Assembly (NCBI GenBank): GCA_020637495.1
Contig: JACJVV010000003.1
Coordinates: 14,127-78,126, forward strand
Length of the DNA: 64,000 nt
Reading direction: 5' to 3'
DNA from: Candidatus Woesearchaeota archaeon
Lineage (GTDB): Archaea > Nanobdellota > Nanobdellia > Woesearchaeales > JACJVV01
This document shows positions 9,273 to 64,000 of this stretch, piece by piece. The first letter of the stretch is position 1. Each line of letters opens with the position of its first letter. The position numbers and the translations under genes are program-made. The notes beneath the pieces were generated by a model. It ran no database searches and was not told the origin of the DNA. It was given only the letters and a program-made list of their open reading frames with translations.

Positions 9273-9306
9273 TAAATTATTAAAATGAGCTAGAGTTCAG
9301 CATGAC

Positions 9307-9864
9307 ATGGCAGTCCCAAAGAAAGTCAAGAAGAAATTGAAGCTGTTCGGTTTCTATAGCCTTATAGTATTCCTGGTATTGATTATACTGATGCTATTCA
9401 ATGTACCAGTAGGAAAAATAATACTTATCGCAATAATGATGGGGATAGCTACAGTATCAAAACTATACAAGCATTTCATAGGTATAAGCATAGGATTTGA
9501 ACTGATAACTCCGGTCGTTATAATATTTGCATATACATTGAATCCGCTATTTACCATTGTTGCGGCAGTCCTCATGGTAGTTGTATCAGAATTCATCTCT
9601 GGGCAAGTCTATACGAACAACATGATTGCTCAAATAATAATATATGTGTTCATTGTATTCTTTGTTTTTGTTTTCAAGAGCTTCGGATTCATAGGACTTG
9701 CTAACTCAATGATTGTATTGAGGAATGTAGCATTATGGCTGTCTATGGTGATTCCTGGTTTTGTTGATCCAATCAGAGCAACTATTGCTACATTGCCAAA
9801 TATTTTCATCAATGGATTCATCGTGAGCACATTAGGTGTAGTATTAGTGAATGTACTTGCATGA
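9307..9864 (+). CDS. polytopic membrane protein, unknown function
   Basis: 185 aa, basic N-terminus (KKVKKKLK) followed by about 5-6 hydrophobic helices. Confidence 0.5.
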   Translation: MAVPKKVKKKLKLFGFYSLIVFLVLIILMLFNVPVGKIILIAIMMGIATVSKLYKHFIGISIGFELITPVVIIFAYTLNPLFTIVAAVLMVVVSEFISGQVYTNNMIAQIIIYVFIVFFVFVFKSFGFIGLANSMIVLRNVALWLSMVIPGFVDPIRATIATLPNIFINGFIVSTLGVVLVNVLA

Positions 9865-34977: not shown

Positions 34978-37900
34978 CTAAGAACAGCTTCCGACTGAAG
35001 CACCAAGCCAATCTGAACATCCAGATTGGTTATCATAAGTGTTTCCCAGATCTGATTGACCAGGTGAATTTGTGCAATATATTCCAGCTGATCCTGTTGT
35101 ACCGCAAACCGTATTATTGTAAAGTATATTTTGATAAGGATTAGTGTATACAAATGCAATACCTGCATAATTTGTATTGTTCCTTACAAAGTTATGCTGA
35201 ATTGTATTATTCTGTCCACCCCATAGGTAAATACCATTATTTCCGTTGTGGCTAACATTATTATATTCTATGATATTATTTGCATTTGAGTTTGATGATA
35301 CATAGATCCCAGTATTGCTATTGTAGATTACTGTATTATTAGTAATACTAGATGTTGCAATAGCAGTTCCACCGTCAAAACCTTTCTGATTAGCATATAA
35401 AGTATTATTCGCTATGGTGAAATTATCAAGGGAATGTCCGTAAATGCCTGCATTTGAACTACCATTTATCGAGGAATTAGTAATAATTGAATGATCTATA
35501 TTGTATAAATTAATTCCATCTCTGAAATTAGATATTGTTAAACCACTTAGATATACATATTGATGCCATGAACTATTTATTCCACCACCTGTGCCATCTC
35601 CAGTTATAGACATTCCATTTCCTGTAAGATAAACGTTGTTGCTTTCTATGCTTATACAATCTCCAATAGAGGATATATCTTGGGATAAATAGTAGCTTCC
35701 AGATGTAATTATTGATTGACAAGTTGATATACCTACTGACTGCCATTTCAATTTTGGATAACCAGAATCATCGTATATTGGATCCCATACATTAGTGAAA
35801 TCCCATGAAGAGAATGTTGAGATGTTGTACATTTCTGCAGTTGTCTTTGGTTCTCCTCTTCCAGTATCAGATTTTCCTGATGTTTCTGTGTCGTAGTAAG
35901 AAGATATGATAGATCCACCTGCTAGACCGACTAAACCTCCAGATGATGAACCTGAAACTGCTCCTTTAGAGTATGAATTGTAAATACTAGCGCTTCCACC
36001 TCCTGAAACTCCTACAAGACCACCTACATAACTTGCTCCTGATACATCTCCTAAAGCGTAAGACGAATTAATTTTTCCAACATTTGAATATCCTGACAAT
36101 CCACCTACCCAATTAAGGCCAGTAACAGTAACCTTTGAAGAAGAGTAATTAAGATTTGATTGATATAGGTTCCCTATTAGCCCTCCAGTATAATCCAATG
36201 CTATTACTGCTCCTTCTGAAGAGACAAAGAGAATATTGGATTTAGATGCTGTTCCTACTAGACCACTTGTTCTATTGCTCCCATATATTTCTATATCTAT
36301 CAAGCTTAAATTCTCAATCGTTGAATTCTCAATATAACCTAACAATGCAACATCGTTAATATGTGTCCTGTTGATATATAATCCAGTTATAGTAAACAAT
36401 TGACCATATAGAGTTCCATTGAACATAATTGATGAACTTCCAATAGGCTTAAAACCCATATAACTGCTTGTTGTTGAATTGTAATTCCAAGTTGATGTTG
36501 CACTGCAGTCTATATCATCAATCAAAACATAATCATCAGTCAAATCATCTTCCATATTCTGAAGATCAGTGCAAGTAAGGATTTGAGTTTTGTCTAGTAT
36601 TGATAATGGATGATAATCATATTCTGTATCATTCACAAGATAAGAGCTATCACAATAACCATTATAATCAGCATCTAGGCATGTATCAGAAAAGCCAGTA
36701 CCGTCTTGCTTAGCCCATACGTTACCACCGTAGCCATAATTACCAAGAAGATTTCTTGTTGATTGTGAGGAAGTTGTATTAAAACCCATATTTGATGGAT
36801 CTACAAAATAACTATCTTCCGTTTCGTTAACAAGATTGTTGTAGATTGTTGAATTTGATCCTGATAATCCAAATCCAGATTCTTCAGGCACGAGGGTATT
36901 TTGATAAATAAGTGTATCATCATCGTAATGCAGACTAATACCTGTCTTAAAACCTTCAATATAGTTATTGGAGATCACATTGTCCTCTGAATATTCTGTT
37001 CCCCCAGGTATATATATTGTCAATTCAATCCCATAATTTTCAAAAATTGGTGTTATTTCTTTAATCAGAGTATTACTGGTTATCTGATTGTTGTCTGAAC
37101 CAGATATAGAAATACCATATGAGACTGAAGTGGAATCAATGTCAAAAGTATTAGAAGAGACTATATTATTATTAGAATTATTAAAAAGATATATAGTTGA
37201 ATTTAACAGATTATTGGATAATAAATTAGAATTTGTTGTAGAAAATAATTCAAAAAAATTGAGATTCTGATCACCCAATATATTATTGGAGAAAACAATT
37301 GTATCTGAAAAAACAAATGCAATAGAGTCTTTTATTGTATTGTTAATCAGAGAAATATCATCTGAATACCAAACCTCTATGCCAGAACTACCTAAATCAG
37401 AAAAGATATTCTGATAAACAACAATATTCGAGCTCTGATTGATAATCAGAGCAGAGAAAGTCGAAATATTAAAACCCATAATTAGTAAATCAGAGTAACC
37501 TTCAGAAACCACAGGTGATCCTGTTCCGTCTCCTTCAACAGTATAACCATTGCCTTTCAATGTTACATTATGCGCTGCTATTATCCAGCAATCACCTGTT
37601 GCTGTTACATTATTCTGCAAAGCATACACACCTGCTTTATCTATCGTCCCACATCCATATAAGGAAATCTCTTGAGGTGCTTCTTCTTGAGTACCTGAGG
37701 CAGTATTAACAGTTGCATCTTGTGGATTTGGGTCTACAGAATCAAGTAACCCATCATTGTCATCATCAGGATCAACATAATCAGGTATCAGATCGCCATC
37801 TGTATCAAACTCTTGCCAGTCTGGTATTCCATTCCCATCATAGTCTTCATTCCCAACAGAAGAGTTTGTGCTCAATGCATCAAAAGTATCAGGAACACCA

Positions 37901-39429
37901 TCATTATCGTCATCATCATCTATATAATCAACAAGACCATCTCCATCTGTATCAAGCTCTTGCCAGTCAGGGATACCATTGCCGTCATTATCTTCTGCTC
38001 CTATTGCATTGTTGAATGGATTGCTGTCATATATATCAGGGACACCGTCATTGTCGTTGTCTGAGTCATACCAATCGCTTACGCCATCAGCATCAAAGTC
38101 ATACCATGAGGATTGTCCATTGTTGTCACCTGAATTATCAAGCCAATCTGGAATTCCGTTCTGATTTGAGTCCTCAGCACCTATAACATCACTCAAAGGA
38201 TTTAGATCATACTCATCTATAACGCCATCATTGTCATCATCAATGTCATACCAATCCTGCAATCCATCGCCATCTGTATCCCACTCAAGCCAATCAGCAA
38301 TTGAATCATTTCCTGCTGAATAACCATCTGTCTCTGCACCATTCTGGCTATCAAGCGGACTTGCATCCAATGCGTCCACTACACCATCATTATCATCATC
38401 GATATCATACCAATCAGGAATACCATCGCCGTCGCTGTCAATCTCCTGCCAATCAGGGATGTTGTTTGAATTATCATCTTCAAGACCGTGGTTTGGATTG
38501 AACGGGTTTGAATCAAGCTCATCAGGGACACTATCACCGTCATCATCAATATCAAACCAATCATAAGATCCATCCCTATCCTGATCAATCTCTATCCAAT
38601 CCGCAATTGAGTTTCCGTCAAGATCATCATGTCCTATTGCAGCATCAGAATCATCTGAGTCAAACCCAGTAGGGATGCTATCATTATCTGCATCATTCTC
38701 ATACCAATTAGGGATATCATCACTATCATCATCTCCTATGTCAATAGACGAATCAGGAACACCATCACCATCATCATCTGTGTCAAGCCAGTCTTCTATC
38801 CCGTCACCATCGCTATCTGTCTCATAAAAGCTAGTATCATTGACTGAAGCGTTGTTATCATCGCTGTCAAATCCATAAGGTGTCCCATCATTATCATCAT
38901 CACCATCATACCAGTCTGGAAGACCATCACAATCATTATCATTATAGCTTCCAACTGTGCATGTGATAGAATTCATCTCGCATGTCAAATCTATGCAACA
39001 TTCTTGGTACTTACCTGGGGGATATATGCATACATAACCGCCATGTGCATTGTCAAGATAGACAACTTCTGCCGAACCACGTCTAGGGACTTCTCCAACA
39101 ACAGGACCATTCACTGGGTAAGCGACAATCTCTCCTGAATCAGTCTCAAAGACAAGATGCCCGTTCTCATAGCTTACCCTTTCCAGATTCTTTGGAAGGT
39201 TTATGCTAAGCTTATACTTCGTATCAGAACCACTATCAGAAACTCTGTTGAGCTGGCTTGCAAGATCCTTGGCACTAGCCTCAAGAGAACTCTTTCCAAA
39301 TGCGCTTTTAATATCAGTATAGGAGAAAAGAAGGAACACTATGAATAAGGCGACAAACCCTATAAGAATCAATATCTCTACTGAATGCTGGGCTTTCCTA
39401 GACAGTTTCCCAATTGGTTTATCCATCAT
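34978..39429 (-). CDS. giant surface protein: class III (type IV pilin-like) signal peptide + Asp-rich Ca-binding (thrombospondin type 3-like) repeats + parallel beta-helix + GLUG-like repeats
   Basis: The N-terminus KLSRKAQHSVEILILIGFVALFIVFLLF contains QXSXEXXXL. About six 45-aa units of the form IPDWQExDxDGDGxxDWYDxDDDNDGVxD follow. Asn/Ser/Ile-rich beta-helix repeats are present (NNxIxxN...). GLUG-like GGLIG, VGGLSG, VGGLVG and SGGLVG occur. A second beta-helix block lies near the C-terminus. Confidence 0.85.
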   Translation of the reverse strand: MMDKPIGKLSRKAQHSVEILILIGFVALFIVFLLFSYTDIKSAFGKSSLEASAKDLASQLNRVSDSGSDTKYKLSINLPKNLERVSYENGHLVFETDSGEIVAYPVNGPVVGEVPRRGSAEVVYLDNAHGGYVCIYPPGKYQECCIDLTCEMNSITCTVGSYNDNDCDGLPDWYDGDDDNDGTPYGFDSDDNNASVNDTSFYETDSDGDGIEDWLDTDDDGDGVPDSSIDIGDDDSDDIPNWYENDADNDSIPTGFDSDDSDAAIGHDDLDGNSIADWIEIDQDRDGSYDWFDIDDDGDSVPDELDSNPFNPNHGLEDDNSNNIPDWQEIDSDGDGIPDWYDIDDDNDGVVDALDASPLDSQNGAETDGYSAGNDSIADWLEWDTDGDGLQDWYDIDDDNDGVIDEYDLNPLSDVIGAEDSNQNGIPDWLDNSGDNNGQSSWYDFDADGVSDWYDSDNDNDGVPDIYDSNPFNNAIGAEDNDGNGIPDWQELDTDGDGLVDYIDDDDDNDGVPDTFDALSTNSSVGNEDYDGNGIPDWQEFDTDGDLIPDYVDPDDDNDGLLDSVDPNPQDATVNTASGTQEEAPQEISLYGCGTIDKAGVYALQNNVTATGDCWIIAAHNVTLKGNGYTVEGDGTGSPVVSEGYSDLLIMGFNISTFSALIINQSSNIVVYQNIFSDLGSSGIEVWYSDDISLINNTIKDSIAFVFSDTIVFSNNILGDQNLNFFELFSTTNSNLLSNNLLNSTIYLFNNSNNNIVSSNTFDIDSTSVSYGISISGSDNNQITSNTLIKEITPIFENYGIELTIYIPGGTEYSEDNVISNNYIEGFKTGISLHYDDDTLIYQNTLVPEESGFGLSGSNSTIYNNLVNETEDSYFVDPSNMGFNTTSSQSTRNLLGNYGYGGNVWAKQDGTGFSDTCLDADYNGYCDSSYLVNDTEYDYHPLSILDKTQILTCTDLQNMEDDLTDDYVLIDDIDCSATSTWNYNSTTSSYMGFKPIGSSSIMFNGTLYGQLFTITGLYINRTHINDVALLGYIENSTIENLSLIDIEIYGSNRTSGLVGTASKSNILFVSSEGAVIALDYTGGLIGNLYQSNLNYSSSKVTVTGLNWVGGLSGYSNVGKINSSYALGDVSGASYVGGLVGVSGGGSASIYNSYSKGAVSGSSSGGLVGLAGGSIISSYYDTETSGKSDTGRGEPKTTAEMYNISTFSSWDFTNVWDPIYDDSGYPKLKWQSVGISTCQSIITSGSYYLSQDISSIGDCISIESNNVYLTGNGMSITGDGTGGGINSSWHQYVYLSGLTISNFRDGINLYNIDHSIITNSSINGSSNAGIYGHSLDNFTIANNTLYANQKGFDGGTAIATSSITNNTVIYNSNTGIYVSSNSNANNIIEYNNVSHNGNNGIYLWGGQNNTIQHNFVRNNTNYAGIAFVYTNPYQNILYNNTVCGTTGSAGIYCTNSPGQSDLGNTYDNQSGCSDWLGASVGSCS

Positions 39430-48288: not shown

Positions 48289-49482
48289 CTACTTCCTGCC
48301 CCTATATATATTTAACGTTGATTTGAAACCATGTAGTATATCTTCAAGTACCAATATAACTGATGGAACAAAAGTTATGGCTGCAAGATAGCAGAATACT
48401 ACGCCATATGTCATCATATCACCTATCGATTTCAAGATGGTAAGCTGACCCATACTCATGGAAGCAAACCCTATGACTGCAGCTATTGTCGTTATGAACA
48501 TAGGGAATATGGTCTTGTTCAGGCTTATATTCATTGCTACATCTGACTTGTTACCTTTCCCGAGCTCCTGACGATATCTTGTTATAATCTGTATCCCAAA
48601 GTCAATACCAATACCTATGATCATGCTGAGAACTCCAGATGTTGCTGAGTTTATGCTTGTGCCGATGAACCCAAGATAACCGAAAGTCCACAACACTCCT
48701 ACTATTATAGTTGTCAATGGCATCAATCCGAAACGTATCGAACCAAAGATTAGGAGAAGGACAACAACTATACCTGCAAGTGAGATGTTGGATGTCCTTG
48801 ACATATCAGGCCCTATCTCCCTGCTGACCAATGTCTCAGCCACGATGCTTCCTGCTATCCTTGTAGAGATGCCTGGAACATTTGGTGTATATGCAATTGC
48901 ATCTTCCATGTCCTTTATCAGGTCATCCTCGTCGAAATTCTCATCAAGATTGATTATTATCCTTGCCATAGTACCATCTTCTGAGAAGAATCTAAGCAAG
49001 GATGGATTCCTCTCTATCGTATCCCTTACCTCAAGTGCTGTCTTTGGGTCTCCTGCAAGCTCAAGATAGGTTCCAGGATTGTTTATGCTCTTTATCTGCT
49101 CACTCTTCTCAAGATACTGAGTCAATGTAGATAAGTAGGTGACTATCTCTGGATGCCGCAGATCCCTAAGCTCCATTGAATTTGAGGCTTCAGGTTCGCT
49201 CTCGACGACAATCATGACCGAGTCGATGGTTCCGAACTCATCTGAGAAACGTAAAGATGCAGCGATCACAGGTATATCGTCCGGGATTGCGTCCTCTGGC
49301 TCGAACACCGACTGCTTCACCTGGCTTGAGTAATTGAATGCAAATACTATAAGGATGATAGTTATGATAAGCATGACCAAAGGCTTGCTCGTGAGAAAAC
49401 TGGCATACCTCTCTACTACCTTATCTGCAAGATCAGATATCTTGAAAGTCCTTTTCTTGTCTGCTTCTTTCTTATGGATCAT
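48289..49482 (-). CDS. RND/MMPL-superfamily exporter, C-terminal half-size unit
   Basis: One TM, a large extracytoplasmic loop, then 5 TMs (GIVVVLLLIFGSIRFGLMPLTTIIVGVLWTFGYLGFIG...). I chose ATG 49482, 10 nt after the upstream stop. Confidence 0.7.
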   Translation of the reverse strand: MIHKKEADKKRTFKISDLADKVVERYASFLTSKPLVMLIITIILIVFAFNYSSQVKQSVFEPEDAIPDDIPVIAASLRFSDEFGTIDSVMIVVESEPEASNSMELRDLRHPEIVTYLSTLTQYLEKSEQIKSINNPGTYLELAGDPKTALEVRDTIERNPSLLRFFSEDGTMARIIINLDENFDEDDLIKDMEDAIAYTPNVPGISTRIAGSIVAETLVSREIGPDMSRTSNISLAGIVVVLLLIFGSIRFGLMPLTTIIVGVLWTFGYLGFIGTSINSATSGVLSMIIGIGIDFGIQIITRYRQELGKGNKSDVAMNISLNKTIFPMFITTIAAVIGFASMSMGQLTILKSIGDMMTYGVVFCYLAAITFVPSVILVLEDILHGFKSTLNIYRGRK

Positions 49483-49492
49483 TTTTATATCA

Positions 49493-50674
49493 TCAGATCG
49501 ATTCTGGTGTCCTCTTAGACAGATGTTTTTTGAATAATAGGTATAGTCTCTTATCAAAATATTTTATCAGCTTCTCCGTTATTATGAATACTATAGGGGC
49601 TACAAATACAGCTGACATGAATGTGAAGATGATACCAATCGCAAGGCTCATCCCCAGCTTTGCCAGCATTGGAAGTATCGAGAACATCAGAGCACCAAAT
49701 CCTATAGTTGTAGTGAGTCCACTTCCAAGTATCGCTGATCCTACCCCTGGAACAGAGACTATGAGGCTTTCCATTATGCTCTTGTCCTTTGCACGTTCCT
49801 CTTCATAACGTTTGAGCATGAATACCCCATACTCAACACCGAGCCCAAGAAGCATTGCTCCAAGTCCTGCAGTCACCATAGATATCTTTATGCCTAGCCA
49901 ACCCATCGTGCCTATAGTCCATGAAAGACCAAGTATCAACGGGATGAAGATCAATATGGACCTTATGAATCCACCTTCCACAACGAGCAAGAAGATGAAA
50001 ATGAAGATGCAAGCAAGCATGATAGTGTACTTCGCATCCTTTATGAGCAGGCTTGTGATTGTAACTTCTACAGGGGGATTTCCTGTTATAGCATATTTTG
50101 TTCCAGGCGGCTTTGAGAAACTGTCAAGCTTATCCTGTACAAGACCTGTTATCTCCCTGACTTTGTCCTCGCCGCTGCCTATGTCGCTTGATATCAATAC
50201 ATAAGTTGCATCATAATCGTTTGATACGAACTCTTCAGCCAATGGATAAGAATCGAACACTTCATCAACATCCTCCTCATGGATATTCTCGTAGCCTTGG
50301 AAGTAGCTCCCTATGCTTACAACGCTGCTTATCGATGACTCCAATGATAGGGAACGCTGCAATTTTGTTATATAAGCTATGATATCTGGATCACGGATGT
50401 CTCTTGGCAGATCCTTGAAATCAAAAGAATCATCAAGGGTTATGACAACGAGAATATTGTCCTGACCTCCAAATTTTTCTGTTATCTTATCATTAAGCTG
50501 ATATATTGCAAGCTGATTTGGATTATCCTCTGACATATCCCCTTGGAACTCGACTTTTGATATTCCTATAAACATGAATATCGTGAATATTGATACGACA
50601 ATAAGTATAAGGATATGATGATTATATTGGAATTGGGCAATATGCTTGAGAAATTTCTCCAAAACTTTTGTCAT
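49493..50674 (-). CDS. RND/MMPL-superfamily exporter, N-terminal half-size unit
   Basis: Same architecture as 48289-49482 (TM, loop, 5 TM: MLACIFIFIFLLVVEGGFIRSILIFIPLILGLSWTIGTMGWLG...). The two ORFs together equal one canonical 12-TM RND protein. Confidence 0.7.
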   Translation of the reverse strand: MTKVLEKFLKHIAQFQYNHHILILIVVSIFTIFMFIGISKVEFQGDMSEDNPNQLAIYQLNDKITEKFGGQDNILVVITLDDSFDFKDLPRDIRDPDIIAYITKLQRSLSLESSISSVVSIGSYFQGYENIHEEDVDEVFDSYPLAEEFVSNDYDATYVLISSDIGSGEDKVREITGLVQDKLDSFSKPPGTKYAITGNPPVEVTITSLLIKDAKYTIMLACIFIFIFLLVVEGGFIRSILIFIPLILGLSWTIGTMGWLGIKISMVTAGLGAMLLGLGVEYGVFMLKRYEEERAKDKSIMESLIVSVPGVGSAILGSGLTTTIGFGALMFSILPMLAKLGMSLAIGIIFTFMSAVFVAPIVFIITEKLIKYFDKRLYLLFKKHLSKRTPESI

Positions 50675-50839: not shown

Positions 50840-52192
50840 ATGGCATTCACAACATTAGGATTACCTGATTCTATATTAAAAGCTATAGAAGATGAGAAAT
50901 TCGAGAAACCTAGCGATATACAGGCAAAAGCTATTCCTCTAGTCCTACAAGGAAAAGATGTCATAGCTAAGTCTGCTACAGGTTCAGGCAAGACACTCGC
51001 TTTCGGTGCAGGAATAATAAATGATGTGCAGAGGGGAAATGGATTGCAGGCATTAGTACTTACACCAACAAGAGAGTTGGCAGAGCAGATAACGCAATCT
51101 TTTAACAAATTCTCAAAATATCATCCTTTGAAAACTGTCTCAATCTATGGAGGAGTAAGCATTAATCCTCAGATTGATGCACTTGAGCGTGCTGAAGTCG
51201 CTGTCGCTACACCTGGGAGATTGCTTGACCACTTACAGAGGGGAACTGTCAACCTTGAGAAGATAAACATATTAGTCCTTGATGAGGCTGACAGGATGCT
51301 CGATATGGGATTCATAGACGATGTAAGGAAGATAATCTCCAGATGCAAAAAGGACAGGCAGACCCTTCTTTTTTCTGCAACCATTGCTCCTGAGATAGCT
51401 GACATCGCAGAAAGATTCATGAACGACCCTATAGAAGTATCATCTGATGCTTATGTCGATCCTACAAAACTCAGACAGGTATATTATGAGATAGATGATA
51501 AAAGAAAATTCTCCTTATTAGTTCATCTCCTTAAGCAGGAAAGAGCAGGACTGGTGATGGTATTCTGCAACACACAACAGAATACGGATTTTGTCGAGAG
51601 AAACCTGAGGAAGAACGATATTGATGCGGTAGCTATCCATGGGAGGCTATCACAGGCCAGAAGAAGCTCAACACTTGAAAAATTTAATTCTGCAAAAGTA
51701 GGAGTTCTCGTCTGCACAGATGTTGCAGCTAGAGGCCTTGACATCAAAGGAGTCTCTCATGTATATAATTATGACATCCCAAGGGAAAGCAAGCAATACA
51801 TCCACAGGATTGGAAGGACTGCAAGAGCAGGAAAAGAAGGTATTGCAATAAACATATTGACGCAAAGAGACCATGAGAATTACTCAAGGCTTCTTCGAGA
51901 TTATGCTGTCGACCCAGAGAAGATGGAAGTGCCTGAAGTTGAGAGGGCATTCATCAATGTCGATAAAGGCGGTCGAGGAAGAGGTTCACGAGGTGGATTC
52001 AGAGGCCCATCCAGACAGAATAGAGGGTTTGGAAGAAGAGAAGACAGAAATGATAGAAGAGGAAGCAGGGAAGGTGGTCGAAGAGACCATAGTAGAGGCC
52101 CTAGCAGAGATTCAGAAAGAAGGCCAAGACAGGATAGGCATCATGAGCCTACAAGGACAGGAAACAGTTTCGGCGGCAGATCAAGGATATGA
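50840..52192 (+). CDS. DEAD-box ATP-dependent RNA helicase with Arg/Gly-rich C-terminal tail
   Basis: Q motif region, AKSATGSGKTLAF (I), PTRELA (Ia), DEAD (II), SAT (III), HRIGRTARAG (VI). Tail is GGRGRGSRGGFRGPSRQNRGFGRREDRNDRRGSREGGRRD... Confidence 0.93.
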   Translation: MAFTTLGLPDSILKAIEDEKFEKPSDIQAKAIPLVLQGKDVIAKSATGSGKTLAFGAGIINDVQRGNGLQALVLTPTRELAEQITQSFNKFSKYHPLKTVSIYGGVSINPQIDALERAEVAVATPGRLLDHLQRGTVNLEKINILVLDEADRMLDMGFIDDVRKIISRCKKDRQTLLFSATIAPEIADIAERFMNDPIEVSSDAYVDPTKLRQVYYEIDDKRKFSLLVHLLKQERAGLVMVFCNTQQNTDFVERNLRKNDIDAVAIHGRLSQARRSSTLEKFNSAKVGVLVCTDVAARGLDIKGVSHVYNYDIPRESKQYIHRIGRTARAGKEGIAINILTQRDHENYSRLLRDYAVDPEKMEVPEVERAFINVDKGGRGRGSRGGFRGPSRQNRGFGRREDRNDRRGSREGGRRDHSRGPSRDSERRPRQDRHHEPTRTGNSFGGRSRI

Positions 52193-53436: not shown

Positions 53437-53913
53437 TCATTGCTCCTCTACAATCTTATCAAGAAAGGCCAGTACATCTTTAGCATGATCCTTCACTTTT
53501 ACATTCTCCCATACATTCACTATATATCCTTCGGGATCGATAAGGAATGTCGTACGCAATGTGCCCATGTGTTCTTTACCCATGAAACTCTTCTTTCCCC
53601 ATGTACCATACTTCTTATGAGCTTCTTTCTTATCGTCTGACAGGAGGAGGATATTTAATTTCTGGTCTGACATGAATTTCTGGTGACAGCTGCATGAATC
53701 TGTGCTTATTCCGATTATGACTGCATTATTCTCCTGGAACTTCTTCTTGAGCCTTGTGAAATCCTGAGCCTCAATAGTGCACCCAGGAGTATTATCCCTA
53801 GGATAGAAATAAAGGACTACATATTCACCTTTGAAGGATGAGAGCCGGACTGGTACATCATCCGGACATCCTAAAGTGAATTGAGGTGCTTTTTTATTCA
53901 GTAATTTATGCAT
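53437..53913 (-). CDS. bcp: peroxiredoxin, Bcp (PrxQ) type
   Basis: VVLYFYPRDNTPGCTIEA carries the peroxidatic Cys in the PxxxTxxC context. 158 aa with a thioredoxin fold. Confidence 0.9.
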   Translation of the reverse strand: MHKLLNKKAPQFTLGCPDDVPVRLSSFKGEYVVLYFYPRDNTPGCTIEAQDFTRLKKKFQENNAVIIGISTDSCSCHQKFMSDQKLNILLLSDDKKEAHKKYGTWGKKSFMGKEHMGTLRTTFLIDPEGYIVNVWENVKVKDHAKDVLAFLDKIVEEQ

Positions 53914-54645: not shown

Positions 54646-56148
54646 ATGATAGAAGGGGTGTACGTTGATCTAATCCAGATACTGTATGTTATGCTAATAT
54701 TAGTCCTGGGTTTCATACTTGCAAACCTATCTACAAGGATCCTAATAAAAGTATATAGGAAACAGAAACTCAAAAGACTCAATGATGAGAATGTGATAAT
54801 AGCTGTCGCACATAAATCGATAGTAATATCTTCCATCATCATCGCATTGCTCTATCTTGGATTCACTACGCTTGATGTATTCTTTGTTTCATTCATAGTC
54901 CTGCTTCCTACCATAATAATAGTGCTTTTGCTATTGGCTTTAGGAGTATACACTATAAATTTTGTCACATGGATAATAAGAGTATTCATCAACTCAACAC
55001 AGGTGGGTGAATATATAGAGGAAGAGACACATGTGAATCTAGTCAATCTATTCATACTTGTCGTGCAGATAGTACTGTATTTACTGCTCTTCGAGCTTAT
55101 TGTGTCCTATGTTGAACTAGAGTTCTTCCATAATATACTCAATTACATCCTATATCCAGTAGTAGGACTATTGTTCCTTATCGTTTTTGTAGGTGCATTC
55201 AATCCTGTCAGGGATTATACTGCAAGCTTCTATCTGAAGAATTCATACAAATTCAAGCCTGGAAATATAGTAAGATTTGAGAAAAGACAGCTAGAGATAG
55301 TGAAGATAACAAATCTAACAACAGAGCTGAAAACAAAGGAAGGTTTCGTTGCTGTCATACCTAATAGGGTGCTGAGCAGCAAAGAGCTTACAGTAGAGAA
55401 ACCGAGCATTGAGATGGAGACATTAGAAAGCTTGAAGAAACATTTTGTGCCTCAACTCAAAAGCCATTGCGGACCAGCATGTGCTACGATGGCTTTAGCA
55501 ATGTTCAAGATCGATGCAAACCAAGAAGATCTAGGAAAGCTTATGGGTACAATCACAAGATACAGCAAGAAACAGAAGATTGCTGGAACACATCCAGATC
55601 ATCTGATATCAGCGATCACAAAATATACCAAAGAGAGAGTCATAGGGGCTTGGGTTGATTATGACCATATATATGATCTTGAGAAGGAAGTTGCAAGATG
55701 GCTTGCTAATGGTGCATTGATCATTGTCGATTACAAGAAGAAATATCTTTTCCCTGAGGCAAAGACTGCACATTATTCATTGGTTGTTGGGGTAAAAGGA
55801 GACCAATTCCTTATCGTAGATCCATCACAGAAATCTGGTGGCGTATATTTCACAGATTACAGAGACATAGAGGTTGGAATGGATACATATAGTGAACTCA
55901 TCAAAGGGAAGAGAGGATATATCGTCATAGCTCCGAAAGGTAGTGGTGCTTTCAAGCGGATAAGCGAGGGTTTGATATACTTCCATCCAAGCATGTACAA
56001 GAGAATAACAAAAGAATTGACTAGAAAATTGAACAAGATGACAAATTCTGTCTCACTCTATGAGACAGTCCCTAGCTTCATAAAGAAATATCTCAAAGAA
56101 TACAAGCGTGCACAAATTCAGCGCGTCTGGAGACCTGAACATAAGTGA
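54646..56148 (+). CDS. fusion protein: MscS-like mechanosensitive-channel membrane/beta domain + C-terminal C39-like cysteine peptidase domain
   Basis: About 5 TM helices are followed by FKPGNIVRFEKRQLEIVKITNLTTELKTKEGFVAVIPNRVLSS (MscS beta-domain pattern GD-x-V...G-x-V-x-I...T...iPN). The C-terminus has SHCGPACATMALAMFKID (catalytic Cys context) and AHYSLVVGVKGDQFLIVDP (His context). Confidence 0.6.
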   Translation: MIEGVYVDLIQILYVMLILVLGFILANLSTRILIKVYRKQKLKRLNDENVIIAVAHKSIVISSIIIALLYLGFTTLDVFFVSFIVLLPTIIIVLLLLALGVYTINFVTWIIRVFINSTQVGEYIEEETHVNLVNLFILVVQIVLYLLLFELIVSYVELEFFHNILNYILYPVVGLLFLIVFVGAFNPVRDYTASFYLKNSYKFKPGNIVRFEKRQLEIVKITNLTTELKTKEGFVAVIPNRVLSSKELTVEKPSIEMETLESLKKHFVPQLKSHCGPACATMALAMFKIDANQEDLGKLMGTITRYSKKQKIAGTHPDHLISAITKYTKERVIGAWVDYDHIYDLEKEVARWLANGALIIVDYKKKYLFPEAKTAHYSLVVGVKGDQFLIVDPSQKSGGVYFTDYRDIEVGMDTYSELIKGKRGYIVIAPKGSGAFKRISEGLIYFHPSMYKRITKELTRKLNKMTNSVSLYETVPSFIKKYLKEYKRAQIQRVWRPEHK

Positions 56149-58782: not shown

Positions 58783-59241
58783 CTAGGAGAAAATGCCACC
58801 AAACTTCTTATGGACATGGCTGTTCCACAACCTCTGGAATTGACTTGCATCAGGGAGTCTTATGGCTGTATTGTTCTGATTGAGGAATATCTTGAATACT
58901 ATCTTAAGCCAATGATACCTGTCCTTGAACCATGGCTGTTTCTCGTGCACAATTATCTTTATGTTCCCTATCTCAGTCTTGTTGAAACCTTTTCCTATAT
59001 TGAAATATAACACCCTGTCTTCACCAAGCTTCCTTTCCTTGGGATGTGGCCTGTAAGAACGATGAACTTGCTCGGAGAGGTGATGGAACATCACTTTCTT
59101 CACTATATCCTCTTCAAGAAGTTCCATGAAATGATCTTCAGTAAGATGGCGATCAGAAGCTTTCAATGTCCATCCTTTGAATTCTATACCTAAAGAAGTC
59201 CCATTTGCCCAAAGGATCCTCTTCTCACCATACATGCTCAT
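58783..59241 (-). CDS. hypothetical protein
   Basis: 152-aa ORF with no recognisable motif. Confidence 0.4.
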   Translation of the reverse strand: MSMYGEKRILWANGTSLGIEFKGWTLKASDRHLTEDHFMELLEEDIVKKVMFHHLSEQVHRSYRPHPKERKLGEDRVLYFNIGKGFNKTEIGNIKIIVHEKQPWFKDRYHWLKIVFKIFLNQNNTAIRLPDASQFQRLWNSHVHKKFGGIFS

Positions 59242-59282: not shown

Positions 59283-59555
59283 TTATGAGGACTGCTTGAC
59301 TGCTTTCTGAAGATCATCAGGTGAGAATCCTATCAGCTGTATATTCTTAGTCTGGATAATGTCTTTAAGCCTCTGCGATACATGATCGAATGGAACACCC
59401 ATTAGTCCTTTCTCTATGTCCTCTATCGCATACTCTGGGTGAATGAAGAAATCCCCGCATAACTTTATCGTCAAGATATGATCATTCTTATGCATCAATT
59501 CTATCCTGAGAAGCTTCCCTCCCTCTACCTTATAATCAATATTTGCCTGTTTCAT
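59283..59555 (-). CDS. lipoate-protein ligase accessory C-terminal domain protein (LplA-C / LplB-like)
   Basis: 90 aa. KVEGGKLLRIELMHKNDHILTIKLCGDFFIHPEYAIEDIEKGL matches the LplA C-terminal domain pattern (...GDFF.hP). It is encoded separately downstream of the catalytic domain, as in Thermoplasma. Confidence 0.7.
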   Translation of the reverse strand: MKQANIDYKVEGGKLLRIELMHKNDHILTIKLCGDFFIHPEYAIEDIEKGLMGVPFDHVSQRLKDIIQTKNIQLIGFSPDDLQKAVKQSS

Positions 59556-59637
59556 TCTTAATTATTTTTCCTTAATTATTCTATTTTTTATCATTAAATA
59601 TCTAATTATTCTATTTAATTATTTTAATTAATAATTC

Positions 59638-60393
59638 TCATCTCTGCTTGTTCCATCTATCTGTTGCATACTTCTCTTTGCATATCTGCAGTGCAGTATC
59701 TTCCTCAAAGAACTCTGACTGTTCAAACTCGACATCAAATGTCTCCTCGAATCCTTCTGTCAATGCTTCTGCTAATCTTTCATAGGATATCTCCTTCCCC
59801 ATATGCTTTATGCTAGTTACCCTGTCTTTTGCCGCAGATATCATCTTATCCCTTATCTTCTCGTCTGGGACTTTAAGTACTGAGAACATCTTCTCAATAT
59901 CAACATCCATAAGTATAGTGCCATGCTGCAAAACTATGCCTCCAAACCTAGTCTGTGCATTGCCGGAGATCTTCTTCCCATCAACAACAATGTCATTTAT
60001 CGGCTTGAATTCAGAATCGATCCCTAGCTTTTTCAGACCAAGAATGATCGCTCCACATATCTTCTCATAAGATTTTATTATGTCTTTTGGAAGATCATCT
60101 TCTGACAATACAATAGAATATGTCAATTCATGCTCGTGGAGAACTGCACCTCCTCCTGTATAGCGGCGGATTATGTCAATACCTAGATCTTCAGCTTTCT
60201 TGACATCAACTTCTTTTTCCAATGATTGGAAGTAACCGATAGTCACTGCGGGAGGCTTCCATCTGTAGAAACGTAATGTGTTAGGAATGATGTTCTTCAT
60301 CCTGCTTATCGCAATGGTCTCATCTATCGCCATCTGCATCGCTCCATTCGTCTCAATGTTGCCTAGCAGACGCCATTTCTCCTGCATGATCAT
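59638..60393 (-). CDS. lplA: lipoate-protein ligase A, catalytic domain
   Basis: LRFYRWKPPAVTIGYFQ, IIRRYTGGGAVLHE and GKKISGNAQTRFGGIVLQHGTIL (lipoyl-AMP binding Lys context). Confidence 0.88.
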   Translation of the reverse strand: MIMQEKWRLLGNIETNGAMQMAIDETIAISRMKNIIPNTLRFYRWKPPAVTIGYFQSLEKEVDVKKAEDLGIDIIRRYTGGGAVLHEHELTYSIVLSEDDLPKDIIKSYEKICGAIILGLKKLGIDSEFKPINDIVVDGKKISGNAQTRFGGIVLQHGTILMDVDIEKMFSVLKVPDEKIRDKMISAAKDRVTSIKHMGKEISYERLAEALTEGFEETFDVEFEQSEFFEEDTALQICKEKYATDRWNKQR

Positions 60394-61256
60394 TCTCCGT
60401 GGAGCTCTCTTGCACGATAAGAGCTTCTCACAAGTCTTCCAGACGCTGCATTCTTGAAACCCAGATCAAGAGCAATATCTTTCAGTTCCTCAAATTCTTC
60501 ATCCGAATATTCTTTGACTACATCTGCATGATCATCTGAAGGCTGCATATATTGCCCTATCGTCACAATATCAACATCAACCTTACGAAGATCCTTGAGT
60601 GTCTTGATTATGTCTTCCTTTGATTCACCAAGACCAACCATAAGACCTGATTTTGTAAGCATTATAGGATCGGTTCGTTTCACTTCTTTAAGGAGCATCA
60701 ACGATAGGTCATAATCGCCAGATGGCCTGACTTTAGGAAAGATATCCCTTGTCACCTCAATATTATGATTAAGGACATCAGGCTTTGCATCTATAATCGT
60801 CTTCAAGGCTGCAATATTCCCTCTCAAGTCGCTGATAAGGACTTCAACCTTGCATCCTTGCTTCTTGACCTCTTCAATAACCTTGACAAAGTGTGATGCA
60901 CCACCATCACCAAGATCATCCCTTGTGACACAAGTTATCACTACGTATTTCAATCCTAGTTCTTTTATTGCGTCTGCTATACGTCTTGGTTCATTCTCAT
61001 CAAGAATCTGAGGCTTGCCATGCTTAACATTGCAATAGAGACAATTCCTTGTGCATGTGTCGCCCATTATCATGAAGGTGGCAGTCTTCGCTGAGAAACA
61101 TTCGTAGCGGTTAGGACAGTTCGCTTCCATGCAGACAGTTGTTAACTTATTCTCTGTAAGAAGCGATAAAGTAGCAAGATACTGATGACGATCGATCCTT
61201 TTCTTTGCATCGCTTGGGATTGGCCGGATGCTTCCATCACTATTTCTTCCTTGCAT
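60390..61256 (-). CDS. lipA: lipoyl synthase
   Basis: Auxiliary cluster CMEANCPNRYEC (CX4CX5C) and radical-SAM cluster CTRNCLYC (CX3CX2C). Also VVITCVTRDDLGDGGA. Confidence 0.95.
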   Translation of the reverse strand: MQGRNSDGSIRPIPSDAKKRIDRHQYLATLSLLTENKLTTVCMEANCPNRYECFSAKTATFMIMGDTCTRNCLYCNVKHGKPQILDENEPRRIADAIKELGLKYVVITCVTRDDLGDGGASHFVKVIEEVKKQGCKVEVLISDLRGNIAALKTIIDAKPDVLNHNIEVTRDIFPKVRPSGDYDLSLMLLKEVKRTDPIMLTKSGLMVGLGESKEDIIKTLKDLRKVDVDIVTIGQYMQPSDDHADVVKEYSDEEFEELKDIALDLGFKNAASGRLVRSSYRARELHGE

Positions 61257-62583
61257 TCAGAACACCTATCTTTCTCTGGCATATGTCTGCCACTACAGAT
61301 AACGGTTCGAATATAGGAGCTACACTAGGATTGTAACAGTAATCAATACTGCATAAGTCAGATAATTTCATCTTATACTGGATTGCCATAGATACCAGAT
61401 CCAATCTTCCAGCTACTTCCTCATGCCCTATTATCTGAGCACCGAGTACATATCCTTTCATGTCTGCGATGAGTTTTATTATTATATCTTTCTTGTCAAG
61501 GCAATGCTCTGAACGAGTATATGCTTTGAGTCTTGCAGATGCAGTCTTGATACCTTTTCTAGCAGCTGCTTCTGTTGTCATCCCTGTTGCTCCAAAGACA
61601 GTCTCACCTATCCTTGATATGGCAGTGTTGTTTGTCCAGAATCTCAATTGCTTTTTAGGGTTTGAACTGTTGAGTATGTTATTTGCTGCAATCTGTGCCT
61701 GGCGAACAGCAGAAGTGCCCAACCATGATGTTATCGATTCTGATTTCTTTGTCTTAGGATCCTGTTTTGAGATCTCTATGCAATCACCGATGCAGTATAT
61801 ATCCTTCTTTGACTGCATCTTATCGTTCACTACAATCCCCCTGTTGAACTTTAACCCTAGTGATTTTGCAAAGTGATCCTTTACATGAATTCCAGTAGAG
61901 ACTATCAGCTTGTCACGGCTAGTAAGCTTCAGATCTTGGATGTCGTCAATACTTACGTCTGTCTTGACCTTCATACCTTTATCCTCTAATATCTTCTGGA
62001 CTATGCTGCACATATCCTGGTCGAACATCCCAGGGAGTATATGAGGTTGTCTCTCGATTATCGTTACCTTCTTTTTCTGTTCGATCAGACCCCAGCCTAG
62101 CTCCACACCTATGAAACCACCGCCTATTATTATCGCATTATCGAAAGACCTTATGTTCTTCTGCAGATATTCCACATCATCGTATGTAGTGAATGTCATG
62201 TACTGGCTTTTCTCAATGTCCTTTATCGGAGGTATGAACGGATGCGCTCCGTGAGCGAGAACCAGAACATCATAACTTATCTTCCCTTTCTTTCCTGAAC
62301 CTATGTTCTTATATGTTATCGTCTTTAGCTTATCATCCACCTCGACAGCTTCAGTATCAAGCTTGAGGTCAACATCTTCCTTAACATAATCATCCTCATG
62401 GAACAATACTATGTCTGAAAGCTTCTCGACTGTACCCTCTATTACATATGGCAGCGAACAATGAGAGTACTCAGTATGCTTCCCTTTCTCTAGAATTGTT
62501 ATAGAGATATCCTTATTCAATTTCCTGAGCTCAAACGCTGCAACAGTTCCTGCTGCTCCACCACCTATTATCACTACTTTCAC
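61240..62583 (-). CDS. FAD-dependent pyridine nucleotide-disulfide oxidoreductase, single-Cys NADH oxidase / CoA-disulfide reductase subfamily
   Basis: KVVIIGGGAAGTVAAFELRK (FAD GxGxxG), redox Cys in YSHCSLPY, second dinucleotide fold AIIIGGGFIGVELG, and CIGDC near the C-terminal FAD motif. Confidence 0.85.
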   Translation of the reverse strand: MKVVIIGGGAAGTVAAFELRKLNKDISITILEKGKHTEYSHCSLPYVIEGTVEKLSDIVLFHEDDYVKEDVDLKLDTEAVEVDDKLKTITYKNIGSGKKGKISYDVLVLAHGAHPFIPPIKDIEKSQYMTFTTYDDVEYLQKNIRSFDNAIIIGGGFIGVELGWGLIEQKKKVTIIERQPHILPGMFDQDMCSIVQKILEDKGMKVKTDVSIDDIQDLKLTSRDKLIVSTGIHVKDHFAKSLGLKFNRGIVVNDKMQSKKDIYCIGDCIEISKQDPKTKKSESITSWLGTSAVRQAQIAANNILNSSNPKKQLRFWTNNTAISRIGETVFGATGMTTEAAARKGIKTASARLKAYTRSEHCLDKKDIIIKLIADMKGYVLGAQIIGHEEVAGRLDLVSMAIQYKMKLSDLCSIDYCYNPSVAPIFEPLSVVADICQRKIGVLNARKK

Positions 62584-62936
62584 TTGAAATCTCCTTTGTC
62601 AGTTGTGTTGAATTCATCTATTATCTTCTCTACCACTTGCAGATGCATCATGGCAGGACCTCCTCCCATGACTACAGCGACCCAACATGCAGAAAGAATC
62701 TCATCTTTTGAAAGTCCTGCCTTAAGAGCTGCCCTGACATGGGCGACAAGACAATATTCACAACCATCCTTTATAGCAATTGCAATAGCAATGAGCTCAA
62801 CAGTCTTCTTATCGAGCTTGCTTTCTACAACATCCATGAACTCATAGAAAGATTTCATCTGGTCGGGAGTTGATTCCCTTAATCTTGACAGACCATGAAC
62901 TGTATCCCTTAATAGTTGCTTATAATCTTCAGCCAT
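62580..62936 (-). CDS. carboxymuconolactone decarboxylase / AhpD-like family protein
   Basis: 118 aa. LIAIAIAIKDGCEYCLVAHVRAALKAGLSKDEI is the CxxC...H motif typical of AhpD-like alkylhydroperoxidase-fold proteins. Confidence 0.8.
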   Translation of the reverse strand: MAEDYKQLLRDTVHGLSRLRESTPDQMKSFYEFMDVVESKLDKKTVELIAIAIAIKDGCEYCLVAHVRAALKAGLSKDEILSACWVAVVMGGGPAMMHLQVVEKIIDEFNTTDKGDFK

Positions 62937-62948
62937 TCATCAATCACC

Positions 62949-63269
62949 TTAATCAATCTTAACTTTCATTATCCAGCTTCCTTTTGGATCATTGTTTATT
63001 ACAGATGGATCATCAAACAATGCATCATTCACTTCAACTATCTTCCCTGTGACCGGACTATTGACATGTCCAGACCATTTTACAGCTTCAAGCGTCACAT
63101 ATTTCTCGCCTTTTGCGATCTTCTTTCCTTTCTCTGGAAGCTCAATGAACATGAACTCTTTTGCCTGCTTTGCAGCTTCCTCAGTTATTCCAACTGTGGC
63201 TATTTCTCCTTCAACCTTAACCCAAGAATTTTCCTCTGTATATTGCTTGTCTGCCATTTTATGCATCAT
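62949..63269 (-). CDS. gcvH: glycine-cleavage H-protein-like lipoyl carrier
   Basis: WVKVEGEIATVGITEEAAK...FIELPEKGKKIAKGEKYVTLEAVKWSGHVNSPVTGKIVEVNDAL...PSVINNDPKGSWIMKV gives the lipoyl-Lys in the (E)-x-V-K context. The true start may be the internal MADKQ. Confidence 0.85.
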   Translation of the reverse strand: MMHKMADKQYTEENSWVKVEGEIATVGITEEAAKQAKEFMFIELPEKGKKIAKGEKYVTLEAVKWSGHVNSPVTGKIVEVNDALFDDPSVINNDPKGSWIMKVKID

Positions 63270-63403
63270 TAAAGAGAGATAGTATAAAAAAGTTTTCTAG
63301 CATTTTATTATATGAAGCTTAGCTTATTAGGTCTTAGCTCATAAAAATCATAACCTTAGCCTTGTATATATTATATAGACATTGACTTATGTAGATCTAA
63401 AAA

Positions 63404-64000
63404 TTAGCCGAATACAAGGAGAGTCGGCTTAAGAAGCATTATCAGACCAAGAGCGATAAGCACTATACCTGAGACAAGCTTGAGTATCTTGCCCATGCCT
63501 TCGCTCATCCTTTCAGACTTGAATGTGTACATGAATGACATCAAGATTACAAACAATGGTATCACATAGACAAGGCAATAGAATGCTATGTAAAGATAAT
63601 GCATCATCGTAAGTTCTACACCATAATTTGTTATGAGAACCTCATTGTACTGCACAGGAAGTATCAAAGTGCATCCGAGTTCGACAAGATTGACGAATGC
63701 TGCAAGTATTATTGTACCGATTATAGCGATTGTCAGTCCTTTCGCTGTCTTCGCTTCTTTTACCTCTTTGACTATCTGTCTACCTCTTGCAAGTATCTTA
63801 TGCATATGCTTATCCTTTATGCTCATTGATATCCCTTTCTTGAAGAAGAAGAAATCCTTAACATTGATAAGACCGACAACAAGAGCTATCAACCCTACAG
63901 ATATCCTGATTATACCTTTGTATTCCCCAAGCAATTCTGTTCTCAAAGCAAGAAGAACAATTATGAAAAGGAAATACATCACTCCTGAAGTCACTATGAA
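63404..64000 (-). CDS. polytopic membrane protein, possibly DsbD/CcdA-like thiol-disulfide transporter (N-terminus outside the window)
   Basis: The frame stays open to the window edge. There are several TMs and a VELGCTLILPVQY segment reminiscent of the Cys-in-TM motif of DsbD_2/CcdA proteins. Assignment is weak. Confidence 0.45.
   Translation of the reverse strand, partial: FIVTSGVMYFLFIIVLLALRTELLGEYKGIIRISVGLIALVVGLINVKDFFFFKKGISMSIKDKHMHKILARGRQIVKEVKEAKTAKGLTIAIIGTIILAAFVNLVELGCTLILPVQYNEVLITNYGVELTMMHYLYIAFYCLVYVIPLFVILMSFMYTFKSERMSEGMGKILKLVSGIVLIALGLIMLLKPTLLVFG

Follow-up and report, generated by a model that had tools for sequence, protein, structure and literature searches.

The usual roles of lipoic acid are in 2-oxoacid dehydrogenases and in glycine cleavage, and thioredoxin is the established cytoplasmic donor for the transmembrane thiol-disulfide proteins DsbD and CcdA. 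Lipoamide is also said, in work by Feeney from 2011, to reduce glutaredoxins in E. coli suppressor strains. Here we describe a gene cluster in a stretch of 64,000 nucleotides (nt) from a Candidatus Woesearchaeota archaeon (contig JACJVV010000003.1 of assembly GCA_020637495.1, positions 14,127 to 78,126; the window). The cluster encodes a lipoyl carrier of the H-protein family (GcvH), an AhpD-like protein of the AhpD/CMD family (CMD), an FAD/NAD(P)H disulfide-reductase-family flavoprotein (FDR), the lipoyl synthase LipA, a split lipoate ligase (LplA and LplB) and, upstream, a membrane protein with a thioredoxin-like domain (MemTrx). On balance, we favor the reading that this operon, conserved in DPANN archaea, is a self-contained lipoyl redox module wired to the cell envelope, acting as a reductive relay through MemTrx.

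The nearest membrane systems are DsbD of E. coli and CcdA of Streptococcus pneumoniae; in the latter, CcdA, Etrx and MsrAB2 form a relay from the membrane to an extracytoplasmic thioredoxin-like protein (PMC3914529). The proposed archaeal relay shares with them a cytoplasmic dithiol donor, two cysteines in membrane helices of a pseudo-symmetric core, and a thioredoxin-fold CxxC acceptor outside the cytoplasm. Furthermore, CcdA provides the best superposition of the MemTrx membrane domain, and two species have a canonical thioredoxin in the slot of GcvH. The archaeal system differs in its proposed donor, the lipoyl-lysine arm of an H protein, which would be recharged by a flavoprotein of the coenzyme A disulfide reductase (CoADR) type instead of thioredoxin reductase. 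Moreover, the MemTrx membrane domain has eight helices, fails the DsbD_TM and DsbD_2 models and has a member of PF11139 as its detectable homologue, and its thioredoxin-like domain, with CPHC, is fused N-terminally.

Lipoyl proteins acting as thiol reductants form the second group of precedents. According to PMC12440151, Lpd, DlaT, AhpD and AhpC of Mycobacterium tuberculosis constitute an NADH peroxidase in which the lipoyl protein is the thiol reductant, and Ohr is treated as a further precedent in the same source and in PMC11316075. The mycobacterial peroxidase resembles our locus in its NADH-driven flavoprotein, lipoylated redox carrier and AhpD-family CxxC adaptor; in contrast, the archaeal carrier is a dedicated GcvH and not an E2 protein, the flavoprotein is of the single-Cys CoADR type and not a two-Cys Lpd, the AhpD protein is small (118 amino acids (aa), 5dik-like) and optional, and the cluster conserves a transmembrane partner and no peroxiredoxin. 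In Trichomonas vaginalis hydrogenosomes, H and L proteins occur with OsmC while the P and T proteins are missing (Nyvltova 2016, as cited in PMC11316075 and PMC12440151). The likeness lies in an H protein kept in a reduced system and serving as redox shuttle with no visible P or T proteins, and OsmC lies beside MemTrx in one locus (L014; L numbers denote individual loci). However, the Trichomonas system is eukaryotic and organellar, uses a true L protein (Lpd), and has no membrane relay and no clustering of lipoylation genes.

Dedicated GcvH-like carriers are known from two further settings. The GcvH-L operon of Staphylococcus and Streptococcus comprises GcvH-L, LplA2, SirTM and a macrodomain protein (PMC12440151); it shares with the archaeal cluster a second, dedicated GcvH with its own lipoate ligase and a link to oxidative stress, whereas the cluster lacks the sirtuin and macrodomain and the GcvH-L operon lacks LipA, the CoADR-type reductase and the membrane thiol-disulfide protein. 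LbpA of the sHdr sulfur-oxidation system (PMC6067878, PMC10332631) likewise pairs a GcvH-like carrier with a dedicated ligase outside glycine cleavage, and TusA and DsrE neighbors recur in one archaeal locus, L175; in contrast, the archaeal cluster has no Hdr-like genes and carries canonical LipA instead of LipS1/LipS2.

Conservation of the cluster and the gene beside MemTrx

A sequence-only reading of the window, made from its letters and open reading frame (ORF) translations, had described six co-directional minus-strand genes joined by overlaps or short gaps. The ORF translations reproduce these genes with exact coordinates, tightly packed in the order GcvH-CMD-FDR-LipA-LplA-LplB (Table 1), and profile searches and motifs agree with the families it had assigned (GcvH, AhpD/CMD, single-Cys flavoprotein, LipA and split LplA). 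The archaeal source it had suggested can be specified as DPANN-type, a small archaeon of symbiotic kind: the window has archaeal gene content (eIF2-alpha, TrmB regulators, an Sm protein, an S-layer protein and an archaeal-type ProRS), and the closest homologues of its proteins come from metagenome-assembled genomes (MAGs) of Woesearchaeota, Nanoarchaeota and Nanobdellota. Look-ups of window proteins by exact sequence gave no match, and a scan of GTDB genomes for close relatives, made with FDR, gave only a Methylobacter protein of 27% identity.

We then pooled 33 non-redundant related loci from different species beyond the window. MemTrx lies directly upstream of GcvH in 30 of the 31 informative loci. 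FDR is present in 28 of the 33, LipA and LplA in 17 each, and the AhpD-like protein in 9; the peroxiredoxin Bcp is found in none. A DUF7343 regulator is encoded beside MemTrx in 15 and a membrane-anchored, secreted thioredoxin-like CPHC protein in 13. GcvH is linked to MemTrx and FDR in 33 or more species that belong to several lineages of DPANN, and the closest relative, L002 (GCA_964581515.1), has a gene order identical to that of the window, including an unknown 150-aa gene after LplB. Cluster-bearing MAGs number roughly 35, with GCA_039000455.1 and GCA_051819665.1 as further examples.

Censuses seeded with three different genes agree on the cluster. Starting from MemTrx (80 GTDB species), the recurrent neighbors were only GcvH, FDR, LipA, LplA, CMD and the DUF7343 regulator, and these were confined to DPANN-type archaea; cyanobacterial and Altiarchaeota copies of MemTrx lacked them, and no conserved neighbor of those copies hinted at a partner, synteny being confined to close relatives. 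Starting from FDR (80 species), orthologues of at least 38% identity were nearly all from DPANN MAGs and in the cluster, and about 50 methanogen paralogues of 31-37% identity had none of the cluster neighbors. The GcvH-seeded search delineated a DPANN subgroup of 57-71% identity, apart from bacterial GcvH (at most 53%), with MemTrx immediately upstream in four of four contexts. The arrangement is beyond chance, as it recurs in 33 further loci; the sequence-only reading had named conservation in relatives as a test on which its idea might fail, and the operon is conserved.

Three DPANN species carry MemTrx without an adjacent GcvH (L009, L085 and L014). The downstream slot is occupied by a canonical cytoplasmic thioredoxin in L009 and L085 (WCGPC or WCVPC; PF00085, ~4e-26) and by OsmC in L014. 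Because thioredoxin fills the same slot elsewhere, and because GcvH comes with a reductase and assembly genes, these observations suggest that MemTrx receives its electrons from lipoyl-GcvH in the cytoplasm; the substitution is the strongest argument for that role. The translations of GcvH, CMD and FDR contain no signal or membrane segments, and the three proteins would therefore reach MemTrx only from the cytoplasmic side. The earlier preference for a disulfide relay over glycine cleavage gains support here, since the near-invariant neighbor is a transmembrane thiol-disulfide protein.

MemTrx, the flavoprotein and the lipoyl carrier

Taken alone, the part of MemTrx inside the window (ORF 63404-63994) matches no Pfam or NCBIfam model; it corresponds to the C-terminal 199 residues of P0122, a 453-aa protein from the window's own 220-kb contig that runs off the window end. 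The complete protein comprises a cleavable-looking signal peptide, a glutaredoxin/thioredoxin-like CPHC domain and an eight-helix membrane domain. Exactly four cysteines are invariant among 13 diverse MemTrx sequences, namely the CPxC pair, Cys228 (in DGFNPC) and Cys365 (in ELGC), of which, for the membrane pair, Cys365 alone falls inside the window; the motif C-P-[HY]-C is invariant across aligned members. The CPHC domain is predicted to be extracytoplasmic, an orientation in which the loops fit the positive-inside rule; an invariant KDFFFFKKG loop would then lie on the cytoplasmic face.

As the full-length model matched only thioredoxins in the fold search, the membrane part was modeled separately. 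This AlphaFold model (pLDDT 70.8) shows two N-terminal helices and a six-helix core, the core consisting of two halves of three helices, in each of which the first helix is broken where Cys228 or Cys365 lies; the internal repeat of the domain is weak and not significant (E 0.036). Its best PDB superposition was the NMR structure of CcdA, 5vkv (TM 0.43/0.54, 239 columns), and all other matches had TM values of at most 0.31. The membrane profile is homologous to a paralogue assigned to PF11139 (hhalign 96.5%, E 9e-10), and both cysteine helices align; we take PF11139 to belong to the same Pfam clan as DsbD. The sequence-only reading had suspected a DsbD/CcdA-like membrane protein upstream of GcvH. 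That was a good lead as far as architecture goes, which is alike, and it does not extend to the DsbD/CcdA sequence models, which MemTrx fails; on this mixed evidence we regard MemTrx as DsbD/CcdA-like in architecture and do not file it as a member. Membership by sequence was rejected, as no match to DsbD/CcdA was obtained in Pfam, in PDB sequences or in an hhalign comparison with E. coli DsbD.

The MemTrx family has more than 1,000 matches, in DPANN archaea, Altiarchaeota, many cyanobacteria and some Desulfobacterota. Stand-alone homologues of 36-41% identity occur at about 40 cyanobacterial loci (L019-L087; filamentous and pleurocapsalean) and in Desulfocapsaceae, L068, L070 and L078 being further loci of this set; their only annotation is 'glutaredoxin family protein', and their membrane domain belongs to no Pfam family.

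FDR (Pyr_redox_2, 4e-52) is a two-Rossmann FAD/NAD(P)H enzyme of the single-Cys CoADR/Nox class. Its best NCBIfam match is the CoADR model TIGR03385 (271 bits, far under the cutoff of 579), and it reaches 245 bits against a cutoff of 458 for NF007123. Cys42, in YSHCSLPY, is the sole cysteine invariant across 22 homologues, methanogen paralogues included. The first FAD-binding glycine motif, GGGAAG, equals that of Archaeoglobus NoxA-3 (6pfz) and is near the GGVAGG of a CoADR, and structural relatives include the CoA-persulfide reductase 8a56 and the persulfide reductases 3ntd and 3nta. FDR lacks the histidine (His10) found at this place in Nox and Npx enzymes. Assignment as Lpd was ruled out by the single invariant cysteine, in place of two, and by a score far below the Lpd cutoff (TIGR01350, 100 bits vs 409; the match to E. 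coli Lpd reached only 2e-5).

CMD matches PF02627 (1e-20), TIGR00778 (54 bits, cutoff 27.8) and the AhpD structure 5dik (2e-14). Its motif reads CEYCLVAH, and CxxCxxxH is invariant in the window and five orthologues; clusters without CMD often have a secreted thioredoxin-like protein instead. The Bcp/PrxQ that the sequence-only reading had placed at 53437-53913 is genuine (NF006960, 143 bits vs a cutoff of 140); it lies 5.4 kb from the cluster, with unrelated genes in between. As a component of the system it was rejected because it is not conserved beside the cluster in relatives.

GcvH belongs to the H-protein family (PF01597, 3e-32; NF002270, 117.5 bits vs a cutoff of 117; E. coli GcvH, 5e-22), stays below the equivalog cutoff (TIGR00527, 92.7 bits vs 115.85) and lacks the last ~20 C-terminal positions of the Pfam model. 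The predicted lipoyl lysine, in TLEAVKWSG, is invariant in an alignment of the window protein with 13 cluster GcvHs. In public records the orthologues are named 'glycine cleavage system protein H', and none of the 120 best homologues is fused to a partner gene. The start of the window gene is ambiguous, at 63269 (106 aa) or, in the public gene call, at the third ATG at 63257 (102 aa). A second, shorter class of GcvH bears E-A-M-K-G-T at the modified lysine (L012, L015, L016, L021, L040, L042 and L044), closer to the biotinyl-domain motif than to the usual E-x-V-K-[AW]; FDR, LipA and LplA still follow these genes.

The lipoylation genes are equally recognizable. LipA passes its family cutoffs (TIGR00510, 330 bits vs 310; NF004019, 372 bits vs 203) and contains both Fe-S cysteine motifs, CX4CX5C (CMEANCPNRYEC) and CX3CX2C (CTRNCLYC), together with RSSY, and the LipS2 model reached only 34 bits on the window against a cutoff of 270. 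LplA and LplB form a split ligase, with separate genes for the catalytic and the small subunit: the LplA catalytic domain matches PF21948 (1e-53) and stays below the cutoff of the 'exception' model LplA_large (214 bits vs 480), and LplB scores 73.5 bits with NF053749 (cutoff 65).

The proposed relay and competing explanations

In the relay that we favor, LplA and LplB would attach octanoate or lipoate to the conserved GcvH lysine, and LipA would add two sulfurs where octanoate was attached. FDR would then reduce the lipoyl disulfide with NAD(P)H, probably by forming a mixed disulfide, Cys42-S-S-lipoyl, in the way that CoADR forms one with CoA. Dihydrolipoyl-GcvH, taking the role that cytoplasmic thioredoxin has in DsbD/CcdA systems, would reduce the Cys228-Cys365 pair within the MemTrx membrane domain, from which electrons would pass to MemTrx's own external CPHC domain and on to oxidized cysteines of proteins that are secreted or at the surface, among them the separate thioredoxin-like proteins that many clusters encode for secretion. 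In a minority of lineages, the window among them, a side branch may lead from dihydrolipoyl-GcvH through CMD to cytoplasmic clients such as peroxiredoxins. The reductive direction is favored because the path from NADH (-320 mV) to lipoamide (~-290 mV) and thiol-disulfide proteins (~-270 to -120 mV) runs downhill. For the more specific proposal, that protein-bound lipoyl replaces thioredoxin as donor to MemTrx, a hitherto uncharacterized family of transmembrane thiol-disulfide transporters, and is recharged by a single-Cys CoADR-type flavoprotein and not by Lpd or thioredoxin reductase, we put the chances slightly short of even.

The analysis itself shows what the genes are, their catalytic residues, the predicted topology, the synteny that is conserved and the substitution by thioredoxin; several points nonetheless weigh against the relay. 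We infer all of its electron-transfer steps, partners and direction from gene order alone. At least three clusters whose flanks are long enough to show it have no FDR (L018, L061 and L021), and we know of no single-Cys flavoprotein that reduces a protein-bound lipoyl group. At least two cluster-bearing genomes have a conventional component as well, a thioredoxin encoded nearby in L021 and a canonical CcdA in L174, and GcvH therefore does not simply fill a gap. Three full-length MemTrx proteins gave no match to DsbD_TM (PF02683) or DsbD_2 (PF13386) at E <=1, in a search whose positive control, the genuine CcdA of L174, matched DsbD_2 at 5e-22; hhalign of MemTrx against E. coli DsbD returned a probability of 0.04%. 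The fold match to 5vkv is not significant (Foldseek E 2.3), and the confidence of the models is moderate (pLDDT 71-74). Finally, CPHC in MemTrx matches the classic motif of the oxidase DsbA, as in E. coli.

The competing explanation that survives best makes a cytoplasmic peroxidase relay the main function, running from NAD(P)H through FDR, lipoyl-GcvH and the AhpD-like protein to Bcp or OsmC, with MemTrx as merely a co-regulated oxidative-stress gene. Lipoyl-dependent peroxidase systems are established (references in PMC12440151 and PMC11316075); an AhpD-type CxxCxxxH protein adjoins GcvH in the window, Bcp is not far off, and OsmC adjoins MemTrx in L014. However, CMD is present in just 9 of the 33 clusters, none of the related loci has a Bcp homologue closer than 10 kb to the cluster, the near-universal partner is MemTrx and not CMD, and the thioredoxin found in the GcvH slot beside MemTrx would be left unexplained. 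We consider this explanation unlikely, and the M. tuberculosis-style chain from AhpD to Bcp proposed in the sequence-only reading is not the conserved core; nor is the flavoprotein of the cluster an Lpd.

Electrons might alternatively flow in reverse for oxidative folding, such that the CPHC domain makes surface disulfides, passes electrons inward by way of the membrane cysteines to oxidized lipoyl-GcvH, and FDR re-oxidizes the carrier with NAD+, as E3 would, or with O2, as Nox would. This would agree with the invariant C-P-[HY]-C motif and its DsbA-like form, with the presence of NADH oxidases in the family of FDR, and with the oxidation of dihydrolipoyl groups by NAD+, the normal direction in classical lipoyl enzymes. 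Nevertheless, transfer from a DsbA-like couple (~-120 mV) to lipoamide (~-290 mV) would be strongly uphill, all known membrane relays use thioredoxins such as those in the GcvH slot as reductants, the AhpD-like partner is an adaptor for reduction, the Nox/Npx histidine is missing from FDR, and many DPANN archaea are anaerobic. We regard reversal as improbable.

Ordinary lipoate metabolism would require that GcvH serve glycine cleavage, or relay lipoyl groups to an E2 encoded elsewhere, that it be grouped with its assembly genes, and that its redox neighbors be present by chance. Its scores as an H protein and the public annotations fit this explanation, as does the lipoyl relay through GcvH known in Bacillus and Staphylococcus (10.1101/419234, PMC12440151). 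The sequence-only reading had seen no GcvP, GcvT, Lpd, E1 or E2; this holds in the window, both among ORFs of at least 250 aa and in a homology search of all its ORFs, and no GcvT, GcvP, E1, E2 catalytic domain, Lpd or LipL-like protein appeared in the window or in about 507 kb around the 33 related clusters, the two together making 571 kb searched, of which the window gives 64 kb of its 220-kb contig. The linkage of GcvH to MemTrx and FDR across species, its score below the equivalog cutoff and the divergence of one GcvH subgroup to the short EAMKGT form also argue against this explanation, which we hold to be highly improbable.

Equally slim is the prospect that lipoyl-GcvH, like LbpA, carries or reduces persulfide or polysulfide sulfur with FDR as an NAD(P)H persulfide/polysulfide reductase: the persulfide-reductase kin of FDR, the run of TusA, a YeeE-type transporter, two DsrE and DsrH after MemTrx-GcvH in L175 and the TusA/DsrE partners of the GcvH-like LbpA in sulfur oxidation (PMC6067878) speak for it, but sulfur-relay genes occur in 1 of 37 clusters, no Pfam gene list of the loci contains Hdr-like genes, the clusters carry canonical LipA and not the LipS1/S2 typical of LbpA systems (PMC10332631), and MemTrx would be left unexplained.

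Gene layout, neighboring genes and biological meaning

The features of the cluster are listed in Table 1. The gap between MemTrx and GcvH has a median of ~9 nt in relatives, compared with 134 nt in the window, and judging from its composition this spacer may hold a putative internal promoter. The ORF that follows LplB may be co-transcribed with the operon; a homologue in matching position occurs only in the closest relative (L002 13247-13693).

Table 1 Features of the lipoyl cluster and its borders, in window coordinates
Feature	Description	Coordinates	Strand	Remarks
MemTrx (C-terminal part)	199 residues, cut by window end	63404..64000 (ORF 63404-63994)	minus	full protein P0122
Spacer	MemTrx stop to GcvH start, 134 nt, AT-rich, TATA-like stretches	63270..63403	minus	
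GcvH	GcvH-like lipoyl carrier, 106 aa	62949..63269	minus	12-nt gap to CMD
CMD	AhpD/CMD family, 118 aa, CEYCxxxH	62580..62936	minus	4-nt overlap with FDR
FDR	FAD/NAD(P)H disulfide-reductase-family flavoprotein, 447 aa	61240..62583	minus	17-nt overlap with LipA
LipA	lipoyl synthase, 288 aa	60390..61256	minus	4-nt overlap with LplA
LplA	lipoate/octanoate-protein ligase, catalytic (large) subunit, 251 aa	59638..60393	minus	82-nt gap to LplB
LplB	lipoate-protein ligase, small subunit, 90 aa	59283..59555	minus	
ORF after LplB	function-unknown, 152 aa, 41 nt 3' of LplB	58783..59241	minus	no Pfam/NCBIfam match

Several relatives add genes to the cluster. The DUF7343 winged-helix protein (L002 7042-7536 and 16 other related loci), whose place would fall just past the right end of the window, consists of a transmembrane helix, a short loop, a second transmembrane helix and a winged helix-turn-helix domain. 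Because 16 of the 17 sequences have two paired cysteines (CxxxC or CxC) in the loop between the helices, the layout suggests a membrane-bound sensor of the extracytoplasmic thiol-disulfide state that could control the operon. At the 3' end, 11 relatives (e.g. L005 12979-13575) encode a membrane-anchored protein of ~200 aa that has no Pfam match and is absent from the window. In L175 (8393-11081), MemTrx-GcvH is followed by a secreted thioredoxin-like protein, TusA, Sulf_transp (YeeE-type), two DsrE proteins and DsrH; FDR, LipA and LplA are missing from this run, and 2.5 kb upstream there is a MemTrx paralogue of the PF11139 type. This arrangement ties the module to sulfur trafficking.

In L173 (12454-14068) and L174 (10929-13296), from Aenigmatarchaeota and Nanobdellota, the genes after the cluster encode an HTH_5 regulator of the ArsR type, a permease (ArsP_1) and a small protein of the Thioredoxin_3 family. 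A DUF169 protein separates GcvH from FDR in L173; in L174 a methyltransferase is added to the run, and the genuine CcdA (DsbD_2) lies 6 kb downstream. L010 encodes at 7970-9340 a class-I flavoprotein disulfide reductase of the two-Cys kind (GGTCVNRGCIPSK), on the opposite strand upstream of MemTrx, with a DUF502 gene between the two; that MAG has no adjacent GcvH. Several of the cluster-bearing MAGs, including those of L008, L017, L018, L098 and L099, bear the titles 'uncultured Methanosarcinales archaeon', 'uncultured Gammaproteobacteria bacterium' or 'Bacilli bacterium' and are probably mislabelled bins.

Elsewhere in the window we observed a 500-aa protein with an N-terminal multi-helix membrane region and a C-terminal Peptidase_C39-like domain (54646-56148; PF13529, 8e-9), a DEAD-box-type helicase, recognized from motifs only, with a long Arg/Gly/Asp-rich C-terminal tail (50840-52192), two adjacent half-size MMPL-family genes (48289-50674) and a NosD/beta-helix surface protein of 1,483 aa (34978-39429).

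The components of the cluster are already known, as is the concept of antioxidant relays based on lipoyl groups. Full-text literature searches returned no description of the cluster, of lipoyl proteins feeding DsbD/CcdA-type relays, or of lipoylation in DPANN archaea or Woesearchaeota; what appears to be new is the link to a thiol relay across the membrane, the use of a reductase other than Lpd and the DPANN setting. Lipoic acid in archaea has been interpreted as a marker of aerobic metabolism (PMC3904984). If the relay is correct, that interpretation would be overturned by a dedicated carrier with its own assembly genes, a non-Lpd reductase and a membrane thiol relay.

Protein-bound lipoamide would then join thioredoxin and glutaredoxin as a third type of donor in the cytoplasm for the reduction of envelope disulfides, and DPANN archaea would possess a dedicated, self-assembling path from NAD(P)H through FAD and lipoamide to the membrane and the surface, a new physiological role for lipoic acid. 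A small set of recombinant proteins would suffice to test each step of this relay. The MemTrx family, with its more than 1,000 members, many of them cyanobacterial, and a membrane domain that has no Pfam model, thereby gains a functional handle. For the DPANN archaea themselves, the relay would explain the retention of LipA and LplA in ultra-small, cofactor-poor cells, and it would mark the upkeep of surface thiols as important to a lifestyle that depends on cell-cell contact.

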